A DNA stretch of 64,000 nt from Promethearchaeota archaeon. Its GTDB lineage: Archaea > Asgardarchaeota > Lokiarchaeia > Sigyniarchaeales > SOKP01. Below, in pieces: positions 2,017-17,299 of this stretch. The notes beneath the pieces were generated by a model that worked only from the letters and a program-made list of their open reading frames with translations, did not search any database and was not told where the DNA came from. The first letter of the stretch is position 1, and every line of letters begins with the position of its first letter. The stretch is from positions 64,001 through 128,000 of the forward strand of contig JAEOSU010000032.1 in NCBI GenBank assembly GCA_016840165.1, read 5' to 3'. The position numbers were made by a program, and so were the translations under genes.

Positions 2017-2970
2017 ATGGAAATTCAATACGGAAAAATGATTCTTTATGGAATTCTGCAGGCTGTGTTGTACCTTGCGGTTCCATTAATTATAATCTAT
2101 TTCATAGAATTATACAACATTATGACTTTCAGCCAAGATTTCATTACCTACTTAATTGTTATTGGCTGTATAGGCGTTGCATTATCTATGGCAAAGCACG
2201 CATTTCCCTCTGACACTTCGGCTAATCGCATCGTTGCATTTATTGGAGCTATATATTCCGGGCTATATCTTTTCTATATCTTTGGAGGTTTTACACCTGG
2301 GGTGAGTTTGGGAACTTATTATATTGATATACCTAGCCTTCAAGTTTTGTTAGGACTACAGGTTATAGCTTGGTTATTTCTTATCTCTACTGGAATAAGT
2401 GCATTAAAATATTTAATTCAGGCTATAGAACTTCGAAAAAAGAGGGAATATGAAATTAAAGCAAAAAAAACATTTAAACTTAGTCGAGTCTTCAAAGGTT
2501 TGGGGACTCTAATGAGTCTCATTATCCTTGGTTATTTTGCCAGCATCGTTTTCAGTGGAATGAATTTAGGAATAAGTCTCGATGATCCTGCCCCTCCCGA
2601 TTATGATAATAAGGGTACTCCAAGCTTTCTTGACGATAGCCTTAATTTTACATTAACCTTTGATGTAAATAATCAAGGATTGTATGCAATTTATGATGTT
2701 GAAATCTTTTTGAATATATTTACTGAATCGACTGCTAATGATACTGCTCTTCCAGAATATACAAAAATTGGAGGATCCTCAGGATATTATTATAGTGCGT
2801 TTCATTCATTTACCCTCACACCGGATCAAAGTATAACAGCTACTATTTCTCCTATGTATATAGAAGGACTACTTACAACTAATGCAACACTGAAATTTCA
2901 AATTTCATTTTCGACGCTCTATGCTAATATCGATATTGCTGTGAATGTATCAATTTCAATACCATGGTAA
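2017..2970 (+). CDS. Membrane protein with about 5 TM helices and C-terminal beta-rich extracytoplasmic domain
   Basis: Hydrophobic N-terminal half; Ser/Thr/Asn-rich C-terminal domain with NxT/S sequons. Confidence 0.7.
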   Translation: MEIQYGKMILYGILQAVLYLAVPLIIIYFIELYNIMTFSQDFITYLIVIGCIGVALSMAKHAFPSDTSANRIVAFIGAIYSGLYLFYIFGGFTPGVSLGTYYIDIPSLQVLLGLQVIAWLFLISTGISALKYLIQAIELRKKREYEIKAKKTFKLSRVFKGLGTLMSLIILGYFASIVFSGMNLGISLDDPAPPDYDNKGTPSFLDDSLNFTLTFDVNNQGLYAIYDVEIFLNIFTESTANDTALPEYTKIGGSSGYYYSAFHSFTLTPDQSITATISPMYIEGLLTTNATLKFQISFSTLYANIDIAVNVSISIPW

Positions 2971-3076
2971 TTAATAATTAAAGAATTTTTTTCTTTCTCT
3001 TTTATTTTCAGTACTTTTCAATAATTAATAAATTAAACACTATATCTTTAAATTCGCTTTAGATTAAGACAATATT

Positions 3077-3589
3077 ATGAATGATGAGGAACCACCACGG
3101 CCAAATGGACTTCCAACTGGATCTTCAGCCCCACTTATTGATACTAAAGATATCAACGGTAATTCATTAAATTTGAAAAAATTACTCGGAGAATACAATG
3201 GTGTGCTTATTGATTTTTTTCGGGGAAACTGGTGAAAACATTGAAAGGAACATCTTTCCTTACTCACAAAACACATAGAAGAATTTGAAAGAAAGAATGT
3301 AAAAATATTATCCATAGCTAATGACAGCCCTAGACTGCTCGCGAAATTTAAAGAAGAGAATTATTTTAAAATAGATCTTATTGCGGATAGGGGAGCAAAG
3401 ATTGCCAAAGATTATGAAGTCTATTGGTTTGCTCCCGGAGGAACAGGTAAAATGAAGGTAAAGCAAGCAATTCCAAGCAAATTTTTAATTAATGCCAAAG
3501 GAGAAATCGTCTGGATTTATATCGGTAAGGATAAAACCGATAGACCTTCTATCGAAATGATGATGGATGCAATTGATAAAAACTTATAA
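3077..3589 (+). CDS. Peroxiredoxin-like (AhpC/TSA, thioredoxin-fold) selenoprotein with UxxU motif, 170 aa
   Basis: ATG 3077; MNDEEPPRPNGLPTGSSAPLIDTKDINGNSLNLKKLLGEYNGVLIDFFRGNW-TGA(3233)-K-H-TGA(3242)-KEHLSLL...ILSIAND...LIADRGAKIAKDYEV...AIPSKFLINAKGEIVWIYIGKDKTDRPS...-TAA 3587-3589. The two TGAs sit exactly where FxRGxWCxxC cysteines belong and the fold continues in frame. Confidence 0.9.
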
Positions 3590-3592
3590 TAA

Positions 3593-3659
3593 TCCCATTT
3601 GAATGAATCATATATAAAAATTATAGATATATGAGGACAACCTTGTAAAAGTTATGGGA
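3593..3659 (+). promoter_or_regulatory. SECIS-like element (eukaryote-type AUGA/GA core) in 3' UTR of the selenoprotein gene
   Basis: ATGA-A (3603-3607), 8-bp stem TCATATAT/ATATATGA (3608-3615/3627-3634), A-rich loop AAAAATTATAG, G-GA-C (3635-3638), possible lower helix TCCCAT (3593-3598)/ATGGGA (3654-3659). Confidence 0.8.
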
Positions 3660-3664
3660 AATAC

Positions 3665-3674
3665 TTTTTTTTTT
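3665..3674 (+). terminator. Oligo-T tract, probable archaeal terminator
   Basis: 10 consecutive T directly after the SECIS-like hairpin. Confidence 0.5.
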
Positions 3675-3750
3675 ACTTATTAAATTATGATTAAAGTATA
3701 GGATCATTTTTACGATATGAAACTTATTTAGAATCAAAAGATTTAGTCAT

Positions 3751-5070
3751 ATGATAGAAATGTCTGATAAGGAATATGCGTGGTATGAGGATCCTAGGGT
3801 TGAGTATTTATATCTTGCAAGTAGCACAAAAAATATGCGTGGATATCATGCTCCTATAGTAAATCCAAAGATTACATTTACCGGAACTAATAGTTTCATT
3901 GATTTTGCAAATTTCATTGGAAGCTATTTTGGGCCTGATGATAAACGACTTTTAATTGTTGTGGATAAAGAATTACGACAAATCGGGGAAAGAACAGGAA
4001 ATAGATTGTCAGAGATGAAGGGATTTGAGTTTAAAATTTTTGATAATGTATTGTCCGATGCACCTAAAAATAATCTTATGGATGGAGTTAAAATATGTGA
4101 GGAATTTCAACCAAAGGCAATAATCGCAATTGGAGGAGGTTCCACTATGGATACCGCTAAAGGGATCTTCTTATTATATGAAAAACCAGAAGTGAATCTG
4201 AATAATTTAATTATCCCAAGTTATTTAGGATTAAGAAAGAAAATAGATTTATTAATAGCGATTCCTACCACATCTGGCACAGGTTCGGAAGCAACTACGA
4301 CCAGTGTAATAACCGATACAGATAGGGTACCTCCAAAAAAAACAGCCGTAACTCTCTATGAGCTCTGCCCCGATATAACAGTTTTACATTACGATTTTGT
4401 GAAAACAATGCCTCCTGAATTAACTGCGGCAACTGGTATGGATGCGTTAAGCCATGCTCTTGGAGCTTATACGTTAACCATGAGTAATATCTATACTGAT
4501 ATGCATAATCTAAAAGCTATTGAATTAATCTTAGAATATTTACCTCGAGCAGTTAAAAGAGGAGATGATATGGAAGCTAGAGAGAAAATGTTATTAGCGG
4601 CATATATTGCTGGGGTTGGATTCTCTAATGTGGTGACCAGTTTCGATCATGGCTTGGGACATTCATTTGGAGCTATTTTTCATATCCATCATGGAGCTGC
4701 AGTAGGAATATTCCTTCCTACAGCAACCGCATTTCAAGCAAAAGTTTCCAATAGGTTTATAGATATTGCCCGTTTGTTTGGAGTGGATGTAAAAGAAAAA
4801 AGGAAAGACATAATATTAAAAGAATTTTTGGAGAAACTTCGAGAATTTGTTCGCTCTTTTGGATTTCCCATATGTGTTAAGGAGCTTGAACATCCAAAAA
4901 TTAACTATGAACAATATATGCAAGAAATTGATCAAATGGTTAACTATGCATATAAAGATGTTACTAGGTTATTTTCCACGCGAAGAATTACAATACCCCA
5001 AGTGCGACGACTCTTTGAAGTTGGTTATGAGAATAAAATAGAAGATTTATTAAATTTGTATTATCATTAA
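3751..5070 (+). CDS. Iron-containing alcohol dehydrogenase
   Basis: AIGGGSTMDTAK, IPTTSGTGSE, GMDALSH, HGLGH..HIHHG metal ligands. Confidence 0.92.
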   Translation: MIEMSDKEYAWYEDPRVEYLYLASSTKNMRGYHAPIVNPKITFTGTNSFIDFANFIGSYFGPDDKRLLIVVDKELRQIGERTGNRLSEMKGFEFKIFDNVLSDAPKNNLMDGVKICEEFQPKAIIAIGGGSTMDTAKGIFLLYEKPEVNLNNLIIPSYLGLRKKIDLLIAIPTTSGTGSEATTTSVITDTDRVPPKKTAVTLYELCPDITVLHYDFVKTMPPELTAATGMDALSHALGAYTLTMSNIYTDMHNLKAIELILEYLPRAVKRGDDMEAREKMLLAAYIAGVGFSNVVTSFDHGLGHSFGAIFHIHHGAAVGIFLPTATAFQAKVSNRFIDIARLFGVDVKEKRKDIILKEFLEKLREFVRSFGFPICVKELEHPKINYEQYMQEIDQMVNYAYKDVTRLFSTRRITIPQVRRLFEVGYENKIEDLLNLYYH

Positions 5071-5083
5071 AGGAGAAATTGAT

Positions 5084-6967
5084 ATGACTAACCAAAAATT
5101 GTTTGGATATAATGGAAAAATTATCTACATCAATTTAAATGAATCAAAAACCGAAGTGAGAGAATTAAGCAAGGAGATTGCTGAACTATATGTTGGAGGA
5201 GTAGGTCTATCGGCAAAATTGACTTATGATTTACTTGTTGAACAAGATTATCAAACGTTGGTAAAAAATCCCTTAGATGAAATAAATCCCCTAATATTTG
5301 CTACGGGACCGTTAACAGGAACTTCCACCCCTTCAAGTAGTAGATATTCAGTAACGGCTATTTCTCCGTTAACAGGAATATGGGGGGAATCAACTTCCGG
5401 GGGCTTTTTCCCATTATCTTTACGGAAAAGCGGTTTTGATGCGATTATTATAACTGGCAAATCAAATACTCCCGTATATATTTTATTGGAAAATCAGAAA
5501 GTTGAGATTAAAGATGCTAATTCCTTATGGACTAAAACGACTTATGATACAATTAAAAATATTCACGATGAAAATGATAATCCCAAACTCCGGATTGCAT
5601 GTATTGGAAAAGCAGGGGAAAATATGGTTAATTATGCTGCCATTATTAATGATGAGGGAAGAGCTGCTGGAAGATGTGGAATGGGTTGTGTTATGGGAAG
5701 CAAAAACCTTAAAGCAATTGCTCTCTCTGGTTCTGGAACTATTCAATATAAAGATAAAAATAGTATTGTAAAAACGTCGAAAACAGTGCTAGGGATCATA
5801 AAATCATCTTTTGGAGCACAATTTTATTCTCATTATGGTACCCTTTCTGGTATGGATATTGGAATGGTCTATGGGGATGTTCCCGGATTTTATTTCACGA
5901 AATCTGAATTTCCAGTGGAAAATATAACTGGTTTAGCATTAAAAGAACAATATCCTGTATTATCCTACGCATGTGCTGGCTGTACGATTGGATGTGGCAG
6001 AAGGACGTTCGTTGAATTAGATGGAAAGGAAATAGAAATAAATGGACCAGAATATGAAACCACAGTGGCTTTTGGCCCAATCTCAGGAATATTTACCTTC
6101 GAATCAATTATTAAAGCAAACTACTTATGTAATCAAGAAGGGATTGATACCATCTCATGTGGTGTTTCCATATCATTTCTAATCTATCTGGTGGAAAATA
6201 AGATTGCTCTAAAAGATATCTCTCAATTTTTAACGGATATTAGTATTAAAGAGATTAGATGGGGAAACGAAGATCTTGTATTAAAGCTGATAAACAAAAT
6301 AATCGAGAGAAAAGATATAGGCAAAGTATTGGCAAAAGGAACGCGGGAAATGGCAAAAACTTTAAATGTAAATCCTGAATTAGCTGCCCATGTAAAGGGT
6401 TTAGAAGTTCCATTCCATGATCCTCGGGCTAATTTAGGCCAAGCTTTGTCCTACATGACTTGTTGTGTGGGAGCAAATCATTGTAAAGGTGATTTTTATT
6501 TGGTAGACTGGGGACAAACGAGTTATATGAAAATAAAAAGAGATGATCCACTTAAAATCATTGGGAGAGAAAATTCAGTAATAAATATGCAGGATATGGC
6601 AAATATTTATGATTCGGCGGTAATCTGCTCTGTAACAAAAATTAGTGAAAAGTTTATAAGCAAGTTATTACAAGGGTCTACTGGTTTTGATTCATTAGGA
6701 AGTGTAAAGAAAGTATTATTAGCCGGAGAACGTGCCACCAATTTAAAGAGATTAATTTCATGTAAACTTGGATGTTCTCGAAAAGATGATACCCTTAAAG
6801 ATATAAACTCGAGAGCTTTGAAGACTGGAGCAACAGCCGGTATTAGTTCTAACTTAAATGATAGTTTGAAGAAATATTATGAAATTCGAAAATGGAATTG
6901 GGAAACGGGTTGGCCTACAGAAGAAAAGCTAAAAGATCTCAATATAAAGTTAAATTTCTTTACCTAA
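5084..6967 (+). CDS. aor: W/Mo aldehyde:ferredoxin oxidoreductase
   Basis: SPLTGIWGESTSGG, GRAAGRCGMGCVMGSKNLKA, CAGCTIGC, GPEYET, GIDTIS, HDPR. Confidence 0.92.
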   Translation: MTNQKLFGYNGKIIYINLNESKTEVRELSKEIAELYVGGVGLSAKLTYDLLVEQDYQTLVKNPLDEINPLIFATGPLTGTSTPSSSRYSVTAISPLTGIWGESTSGGFFPLSLRKSGFDAIIITGKSNTPVYILLENQKVEIKDANSLWTKTTYDTIKNIHDENDNPKLRIACIGKAGENMVNYAAIINDEGRAAGRCGMGCVMGSKNLKAIALSGSGTIQYKDKNSIVKTSKTVLGIIKSSFGAQFYSHYGTLSGMDIGMVYGDVPGFYFTKSEFPVENITGLALKEQYPVLSYACAGCTIGCGRRTFVELDGKEIEINGPEYETTVAFGPISGIFTFESIIKANYLCNQEGIDTISCGVSISFLIYLVENKIALKDISQFLTDISIKEIRWGNEDLVLKLINKIIERKDIGKVLAKGTREMAKTLNVNPELAAHVKGLEVPFHDPRANLGQALSYMTCCVGANHCKGDFYLVDWGQTSYMKIKRDDPLKIIGRENSVINMQDMANIYDSAVICSVTKISEKFISKLLQGSTGFDSLGSVKKVLLAGERATNLKRLISCKLGCSRKDDTLKDINSRALKTGATAGISSNLNDSLKKYYEIRKWNWETGWPTEEKLKDLNIKLNFFT

Positions 6968-16255: not shown

Positions 16256-17299
16256 ATGAATATGAAAAAAGGAAACAAATATGGAACCCATAGGGTGATC
16301 AAGCCTATAGGGGCTCTTCCACAACCAGCTCAGAAAATATCCAATGATGAAAACTTATTTGATAATGAGATATTAGTTGATGTTGATTACTTGAATATTG
16401 ATTCAGCAAGTTTTACTCAATTAAAAGAAGAAGCACGCGGCGATTTAAATAAAATAGAAAAAAGGATTATACAAATAGTAAGTGAAAAAGGAAAAATGCA
16501 AAATCCAATTACAGGTTCAGGGGGAATGCTAATTGGTACAGTGGAGAAAATTGGGGATGCGATTTTAGGAAAAATAGATCTCAAAAGTGGGGACAAAATA
16601 GCGACATTGGTCTCTCTTTCTTTAACTCCTCTTAAAATCAATAGGATCAAGAAAATTTATCCAGAAATTGATCGTGTAGAAATTGATGGTAAAGCAATTC
16701 TGTTTGAAAGTGGAATTTTTGCAAAATTACCTAAAGACATGGAAGATACTTTGGCACTAGCAGCACTCGATGTTGCAGGAGCTCCCGCTCAAGTGCAAAA
16801 GCTTGTGAAACAAGGAGACACAGTACTGATTCTAGGTGCAACAGGCAAATCAGGTCTGATGTGTTCATATATGGCTAAAAGAATGGTTGGAAAAGAGGGG
16901 AAAGTTATTGGTCAGGCAAGAAATGGATCGCGAGCTAGTTTTCTCAAAGAAACACAATTTTGTCATGAGGTTATAATTGCTGATGTGCTAAAACCCATTG
17001 AAGTATTGGAAGAAACATTAAAAGTGAATAATGGAAGAGAAGTAGACATCTCGATAAATTGCTTAAGTATTCCGAATACAGAAATGTCGAGTATTTTACC
17101 GGTTCGAGATGGTGGCATAGTATATTTCTTTTCGATGGCAACTAGTTTTACAAAGGCCGCATTAGGAGCAGAAGGTGTAGGAAAAGATGTTACCATGATT
17201 ATTGGGAATGGTTATACCAAAAATCATGTGGAAATAACGTTAAATCTTTTGAGAGAATCTGAAAAGTTAAGAAGAATATTTGAAGAAAAATATTGTTAG
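16256..17299 (+). CDS. kdd: L-erythro-3,5-diaminohexanoate dehydrogenase
   Basis: KGNKYGTHRVI.P.G.LPQPA, NIDSASFTQ, ALAALDVAGAPAQ, FFSMATSFTKAALGAEGVGKD. Confidence 0.93.
   Translation: MNMKKGNKYGTHRVIKPIGALPQPAQKISNDENLFDNEILVDVDYLNIDSASFTQLKEEARGDLNKIEKRIIQIVSEKGKMQNPITGSGGMLIGTVEKIGDAILGKIDLKSGDKIATLVSLSLTPLKINRIKKIYPEIDRVEIDGKAILFESGIFAKLPKDMEDTLALAALDVAGAPAQVQKLVKQGDTVLILGATGKSGLMCSYMAKRMVGKEGKVIGQARNGSRASFLKETQFCHEVIIADVLKPIEVLEETLKVNNGREVDISINCLSIPNTEMSSILPVRDGGIVYFFSMATSFTKAALGAEGVGKDVTMIIGNGYTKNHVEITLNLLRESEKLRRIFEEKYC

Follow-up and report, generated by a model that had tools for sequence, protein, structure and literature searches.

Mariotti et al. (2016; PMC4989117) described a SECIS element of Loki archaea, the lokiSECIS, which lies in the 3' UTR and consists of an AUGA, a 9-bp stem, an 11-nt loop with five leading A's and a final G preceded by A, and a GA behind the stem. 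Eukaryotic, archaeal and bacterial SECIS models all missed these Loki elements, and SBP2 was absent from Loki (PMC4989117). In the same study, both redox-box Cys residues of Loki PrxL.1 were replaced by Sec and the protein had no other Cys, none of the Loki PrxL proteins carried a Cys outside the redox box, and the AUGA of Loki VhuU.1 doubled as the stop codon. Huang et al. (2024; PMC11227280) extended the description to more than 400 Asgard genomes, with elements of an eSECIS-like type I. Two further systems are of use for comparison, namely, the VhuD SECIS of methanogens, with AUGA and GAC/AAC around an extra stem, and SelL of some metazoans, with two Sec residues in a U-x-x-U and one SECIS (both PMC4989117).

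We analyzed a window of 64,000 nucleotides, that is, the whole stretch of DNA presented here, to which all positions refer unless a contig or locus is named. Judging from sequence comparisons, positions 3592-3660 very probably constitute a Loki-type, eukaryote-like SECIS in the 3' UTR of the mRNA for a Prx-like selenoprotein. This kind of element is already known, and the locus holds no new kind of system; since Mariotti et al. described the same type of element, our result is a rediscovery and a confirmation, not a discovery. It provides a clean and well-supported example of a SECIS form connecting selenocysteine decoding in archaea with that in eukaryotes. Translation table 11 splits the gene in front of the element, and reading TGA as Sec restores a single frame with the following features:

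3077-3589, forward strand: Prx-like (AhpC/TSA family) selenoprotein gene, 170 aa with TGA read as U
3233-3235, forward strand: first in-frame UGA, Sec53 by translation; UGA at this place in 30/30 orthologue loci
3242-3244, forward strand: second in-frame UGA, Sec56; Cys in the closest orthologues, UGA in 20 UxxU relatives
3587-3589, forward strand: stop codon UAA
3590-3592, forward strand: second, back-up UAA immediately behind the first stop

The redox box of the protein translated in this way reads U53-K-H-U56, in the context W-U-K-H-U-K, and the 170 residues include no Cys. Pfam AhpC-TSA matched residues 15-146 (3.2e-22) across both UGAs, and thus the fold continues through both; Redoxin was matched as well. 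The features of a PrxL.1-type protein were all found, these being the AhpC/TSA fold, the U-x-x-U box and the lack of any other Cys. Homologues with a UGA occurred in 84 of the 151 genomes covered by a class-level search, and the nearest relatives were Promethearchaeota (Lokiarchaeota) MAGs. The closest orthologues (65-73% identity) have U-S-H-C at the redox box. One other genus has a U-x-H-C gene in tandem with a U-x-Y-U gene, with one SECIS each, which, together with U-K-H-U here against U-S-H-C in the orthologues, suggests that the second redox position of Prx-like genes has switched repeatedly between Cys and Sec. Immediately downstream on the same strand (window positions 3751-6964) follow an iron-containing alcohol dehydrogenase gene (3751-5067) and, behind it, a gene for a tungsten-type aldehyde:ferredoxin oxidoreductase (5084-6964), an aldehyde/alcohol redox pair adjoining the Prx-like gene.

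The element behind this gene has the following parts:

3593-3598, forward strand: 5' arm UCCCAU of the lower (closing) helix, paired with 3654-3659 in the minimum free energy (MFE) and centroid folds
3601, forward strand: G two bases before AUGA, inferred k-turn position -1b, partner C3638
3602, forward strand: A, after three linker bases 3' of UCCCAU; first base of the putative 3-nt bulge
3603-3606, forward strand: AUGA core, the same in 30/30 orthologues and the defining lokiSECIS feature (PMC4989117)
3607, forward strand: A at the base of the stem, facing G3635; a non-standard pair in 18/30 orthologues
3608-3615, forward strand: 5' arm of the 8-bp upper stem, paired with 3627-3634, all Watson-Crick
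3616-3626, forward strand: apical loop of 11 nt, beginning AAAAA and ending AG, in agreement with the published loop rules
3627-3634, forward strand: 3' arm of the 8-bp upper stem
3635-3638, forward strand: G3635 (opposite A3607), G3636-A3637 (3' half of the quartet) and C3638 (partner of G3601)
3639-3653, forward strand: weak 3' mini-hairpin, A3639-U3653, A3640-U3652 and C3641-G3651 with a C3642.A3650 mismatch
3654-3659, forward strand: 3' arm AUGGGA of the lower helix
3665-3674, forward strand: T10 tract, five bases past the lower helix and the first T-run of at least 5 after the stop

An earlier note on this DNA had listed AUGA-A 14 nt past the stop, an 8-bp stem, an A-rich loop, G-GA-C and an oligo-T tract, all of which are in the sequence; the AUGA starts at the 14th base after the UAA at 3587-3589, with 13 nt between them. 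The nine stem positions of the published description (3607-3615/3627-3635) correspond to eight Watson-Crick pairs, only one of them C-G, plus the A.G at the base, with G3636-A3637 directly behind. The loop likewise follows the lokiSECIS rule of five A-rich leading bases and a last G preceded by A. Oligo-T tracts are an archaeal transcription termination signal, and the T10 tract is a probable terminator of this kind; T-rich tracts also stand a few bases past the lower helix in the orthologues. No T-run of at least 5 precedes position 3665, and thus the sequence gives no hint of a transcript that ends before the element.

Folding energy by itself did not set the element apart. The RNAfold structure of 93 nt (3588-3680) had the lower helix in its MFE and centroid forms, at a z-score of -0.35, which is not significant; nor was the score of the flanks against shuffled flanks (z = -0.8). 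Such weak values are unsurprising given that the genome has 32% G+C (68% A+T). Unconstrained RNAfold preferred a small hairpin (3630-3636/3641-3647) inside the closing helix, and we rejected it for its lack of conservation, in contrast to the covarying 8-bp stem. An Rfam scan of 3000-3800 on both strands at E <= 10 returned no SECIS family and just four chance matches (snoRNA, IRES and sRNA). The earlier label of a eukaryote-type SECIS was right about the layout, which follows the lokiSECIS grammar; judged by the Rfam covariance models, the element falls outside the eukaryotic SECIS family. A covariance model that we built from seven distant orthologues (R1), by comparison, matched 3592-3660 at 59.2 bits (E of about 1e-14). 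This was the sole significant match in the 64-kb window, where the next-best one reached 14 bits.

Each of the 30 orthologue loci compared (L027-L056) had the element in the corresponding position, ranging from an overlap with a UGA stop to 19 nt past the stop. In four of these PrxL orthologues (L046, L048, L049 and L056), the UGA of the AUGA itself serves as the stop codon. The loop had 11 nt in 28/30 and 12 nt in the other 2/30, and the AUGA, the loop A's, the final loop G and the G-A-C behind the stem were invariant throughout. In the 30 orthologues, 89% of the cells at the nine published stem positions were paired, and the stem covariation score was 0.715, against 0.334 in shuffled alignments and at most 0.20 in slid registers, so that the covariation among orthologues on which the earlier reading depended is there. 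The first of the nine positions was unpaired in 18/30 orthologues, and a stem of 8 bp plus a non-Watson-Crick pair is therefore the better description. Without guidance, RNAalifold returned the same eight pairs, with compensatory changes in seven and an eighth that never varies; it gave the upper stem only because the MAFFT alignments left the 3' flank unaligned. These data bear on whether the structure might be a chance A+U-rich or terminator hairpin behind a pseudogene with two stops. The nonsignificant z-scores, a genome with 68% A+T and the T-tract behind the hairpin would suit such an origin, which we nevertheless regard as highly improbable: all of the orthologues keep the element with compensatory changes, the model match reaches 59 bits, a terminator does not need an invariant AUGA, GA and loop A's, and dozens of genomes have the UGAs precisely at the redox-box positions.

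Measured from the AUGA, the two UGAs are 367 and 358 nt upstream, and a search of 2900-3800 on both strands with relaxed stem and loop lengths yielded no second SECIS candidate. Among the U-x-x-U relatives, 20/20 had one element directly behind the gene, and each gene of a tandem owned one; the extra elements in those 20 loci sit just behind a neighboring upstream gene. From this regularity of one element per gene, we infer, as had been suggested for this locus, that a single SECIS probably serves both UGAs. It is very unlikely that the element serves the first UGA only and that the second TGA is a real stop or a sequencing or strain artifact of a Cys codon. Cys is the usual residue at this second position in the closest U-S-H-C orthologues, and TGA is a single base away from TGY. 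Against this, U-x-x-U also appeared in two genomes of the same genus and in 18 other relatives with one SECIS each, the AhpC/TSA match runs about 90 residues beyond the second UGA, and a two-Sec PrxL.1 has been published (PMC4989117).

The same grammar recurred elsewhere in the genome. A strict version (ATGA; segments of 9, 11 and 9 nt; then GA or AA; at least 7 pairs; at least 4 A's among the first 5 loop bases; G as the last loop base) gave 13 sites in the 3.6-Mb genome, compared with 0 to 5 (mean, 1.7) in ten block shuffles, and most of the 13 were directly 3' of UGA-containing genes. The motif is thus present behind other selenoprotein genes, as it should be if the earlier reading is right, and the sites are distributed as follows:

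Behind the Prx-like gene at 3077-3589, and behind four two-Sec VhuD/MvhD-like genes
Behind a VhuU-like gene, the stop of which is the UGA of the AUGA
Behind two small G-U-G-C membrane proteins
Elsewhere: a few ambiguous cases and two likely false positives

At C19:6626, C29:63686 and C79:12174, the UGA of the AUGA is in frame and forms the apparent stop of three genes, one VhuU-like and two VhuD-like. The two predicted membrane proteins are small (about 60-85 aa) and are encoded at C82:~26143 and C37:~3243, both on the minus strand, with the G-U-G-C placed after a transmembrane segment; with a canonical lokiSECIS behind each, the two may represent a small selenoprotein family.

The genome encodes SepSecS (371 bits), a PSTK-like kinase (134 bits), EFsec (246 bits, above the cut-off) and a SelD with an in-frame UGA. 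A genome-wide search for tRNA-Sec gave none with ARAGORN and nothing above threshold with the Rfam tRNA-Sec model; at E <= 10, the latter pointed to C63:16346-16450, with 20.6 bits compared to a gathering score of 47. The candidate is placed as follows:

C63:~16335-16480 (locus L023:8336-8481), minus strand: tRNA-Sec candidate adjoining SepSecS, about 5.4 kb from EFsec

Its anticodon, UCA, sits in the loop CUUCAAA, and the T-loop holds an insert of about 30 nt; with pairing assigned by hand, the acceptor stem has 9 bp, the discriminator base is G and the CCA is encoded. A second insert, of about 29 nt, probably lies in the D-loop; the intron reading of the candidate was made by eye. The Loki tRNA-Sec described previously carries an intron in the T-loop and is located on the strand opposite to EFsec, about 6 kb away, and the candidate agrees with it in the T-loop insert and in the proximity to EFsec. 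The genome is rated 99.7% complete, yet ARAGORN found 13 tRNA genes only, the majority containing introns, and the tRNA genes seem to be heavily interrupted or poorly assembled. Two frames in the genome, of 135 and 126 aa, matched Pfam L7Ae, and neither of these matches was a long SBP2-like protein. TGA ended 232 of the 1496 stop-to-stop frames of at least 300 codons and is therefore a normal stop elsewhere in the genome. A genome-wide reassignment of UGA to a standard amino acid, which would make a SECIS needless, is hardly credible in view of this count and of the encoded Sec machinery. The two in-frame UGAs are all that speaks for it, and in-frame UGAs occurred solely at sites that align with Cys in known selenoprotein families.

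The lokiSECIS reading can be extended at the base of the stem. Around the core, positions -2/+3 formed a standard pair in 67/67 elements (G/C in 38, U/A in 23, U/G in 5 and A/U in 1), and this pair covaried between gene families. With a standard pair at this place, the core becomes a textbook k-turn composed of a closing pair, a 3-nt bulge N-A-U, a G.A and an A.G. The present copy has these parts at the sequence level, with A3602-A3603-U3604 as the bulge, G3605/A3637 and A3606/G3636 behind it and G3601-C3638 as the closing pair; G3605.A3637 and A3606.G3636 would be sheared pairs. The tandem G.A pairing envisaged before is compatible with the sequence.

A lower helix and a 3' mini-hairpin, the latter absent from the earlier note, adjoin this core. 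In an alignment fitted to the covariance model (A4), which was fitted to the structure and leans toward it, the lower helix was 86% paired, with compensatory changes in 5/7 pairs and an invariant CCC/GGG core, and the mini-hairpin of the orthologues (AACC, 6-7 nt, GGUU) was 95% paired, also with compensatory changes. The lower helix UCCCAU/AUGGGA, previously put forward as possible, gains support from this result. Constrained folds contained the lower helix together with the mini-hairpin in 25/30 PrxL elements, 27/28 VhuD elements and 9/9 of the other elements of this genome, compared with a fraction of about 0.2 for shuffled flanks. The VhuD family (L078-L107) has UGUGUU/AACACA as its lower helix and AUGG/CCAU in its mini-hairpin, and the junction layout is kept between the gene families although the helix sequences differ. 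GC(A) was frequent in the mini-hairpin loops.

These observations raise the possibility that the working unit is a three-way junction made up of the k-turn, a small helix on the non-bulged strand and the closing helix, with the junction and the A-rich loop as important as the GA quartet. This would be a refinement of the SECIS reading more than a rival to it, and we consider it a serious possibility, although we stop short of favoring it. The frequency of the layout in three sets of elements, the compensatory changes in both helices and the four types of -2/+3 pair all argue for it. The layout also fits the k-junction as defined in PMC10573300 and PMC4005666, namely, a k-turn that carries an extra helix on its non-bulged strand. 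On the other side, the mini-hairpin of this copy is weak, having 3 bp and a C.A mismatch and being missing from the constrained MFE fold, and the flank z-score is the nonsignificant one given above; in addition, the fitted alignment is biased toward the structure, and the relatedness of the orthologues inflates their independence. Neither the closing helix nor the 3' mini-hairpin nor the junction is mentioned in the running text of PMC4989117 and PMC11227280, and the junction may already be drawn in the figures or supplements of these two papers.

A second Prx-like family of the genome also bears on the importance of the junction and the A-rich loop:

C30:148380-148470 (locus L124:1421-1498; orthologues L125-L143), minus strand: element in the 3' UTR of an H-U-P-Y-C Prx-like gene

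The H-U-P-[YF]-C family occurred in 53 of the 81 genomes of the taxonomic family that were searched, always with one UGA, and had a conserved 3'-UTR element. The AUGA/GA quartet was absent behind the C30 gene and from the conserved fold of the family, and model R1 matched neither this element nor the SelD element of the same genome. Unconstrained RNAalifold folded the UP[YF]C element as a three-way junction with a 7-bp lower helix, an 11-bp upper helix and a 4-bp mini-hairpin, with an A-rich apical loop and compensatory changes in 12/22 pairs. We regard it as a candidate for a SECIS variant that lacks the k-turn core; as a modeled structure that lacks the quartet in the same genome, it suggests that AUGA/GA is perhaps not a universal determinant. 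A bolder reading of this family is that lokiSECIS elements are not shortened eukaryotic hairpins and that the junction and the A-rich loop are what the machinery reads, the UP[YF]C element keeping both while having lost, or never possessed, the quartet. We think this rather unlikely and offer it tentatively; if it were true, some Asgard mRNAs could do without the SECIS core, and the eukaryotic SECIS would descend from an archaeal junction that subsequently gave up its third arm. Three by-products of the analysis may be of use for work on SECIS recognition, namely, the conserved closing pair, a junction layout common to unrelated selenoprotein families and the quartet-less junction; between them, they delimit a 69-nt RNA (3592-3660) and its natural variants.

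For the Prx-like mRNA itself, the Loki-type SECIS would act as follows. The AUGA/GA core would fold as a kink-turn, with the A-A-U bulge, sheared G.A/A.G pairs and the G3601-C3638 closing pair, beneath an 8-bp helix that ends in the A-rich 11-nt loop. This fold would be recognized by a SECIS-binding factor, or directly by EFsec or the ribosome, and Sec-tRNA(Sec) would be delivered at UGA 3233 and again at UGA 3242, about 360 nt upstream of the element. The product would carry a U-x-x-U redox box that probably forms a diselenide. The tandem UAA stops would end translation before the element, and the T10 tract at 3665-3674 would end the transcript just past the closing helix.

Compared with known systems, the element came closest to the lokiSECIS of PrxL, VhuU and HdrA-VhuD (PMC4989117) and the eSECIS-like type I (PMC11227280), which it matches position for position, with one element per gene; there is no essential difference from the lokiSECIS, and the present copy simply comes from another genome. 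In eukaryotic type I SECIS elements (Rfam SECIS_1 and relatives), the upper helix is longer than the 8-9 positions found here (PMC4989117), a difference that the earlier note had correctly pointed out. The eukaryotic elements also have a plain internal loop where the Loki element has a hairpin on the 3' strand between the core and the lower helix; their Rfam models are without a match here, and the SBP2-like protein is not encoded in this genome. Euryarchaeal SECIS elements (Methanococcales/Methanopyrus) share the 3'-UTR location and the archaeal Sec machinery. In contrast to the present element, they have a GAA_A bulge and consecutive G-C pairs in the upper stem, neither of which occurs in 3590-3665, and the layout differs. 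The likeness to the k-junction of the TPP riboswitch (PMC4005666, PMC10573300), in which the third helix stacks coaxially on the C helix, concerns the topology only, which in our case is predicted from sequence; the linker lengths differ, with 2-5 unpaired nt separating the lower helix and the bulge in the Loki elements. SelL resembles this gene in having its UGAs two codons apart, one SECIS in the 3' UTR, a redox box in a thioredoxin fold and a presumed diselenide. It differs in that the gene and its SECIS are eukaryotic and in that the protein belongs to an unrelated subfamily within the Trx-like superfamily.
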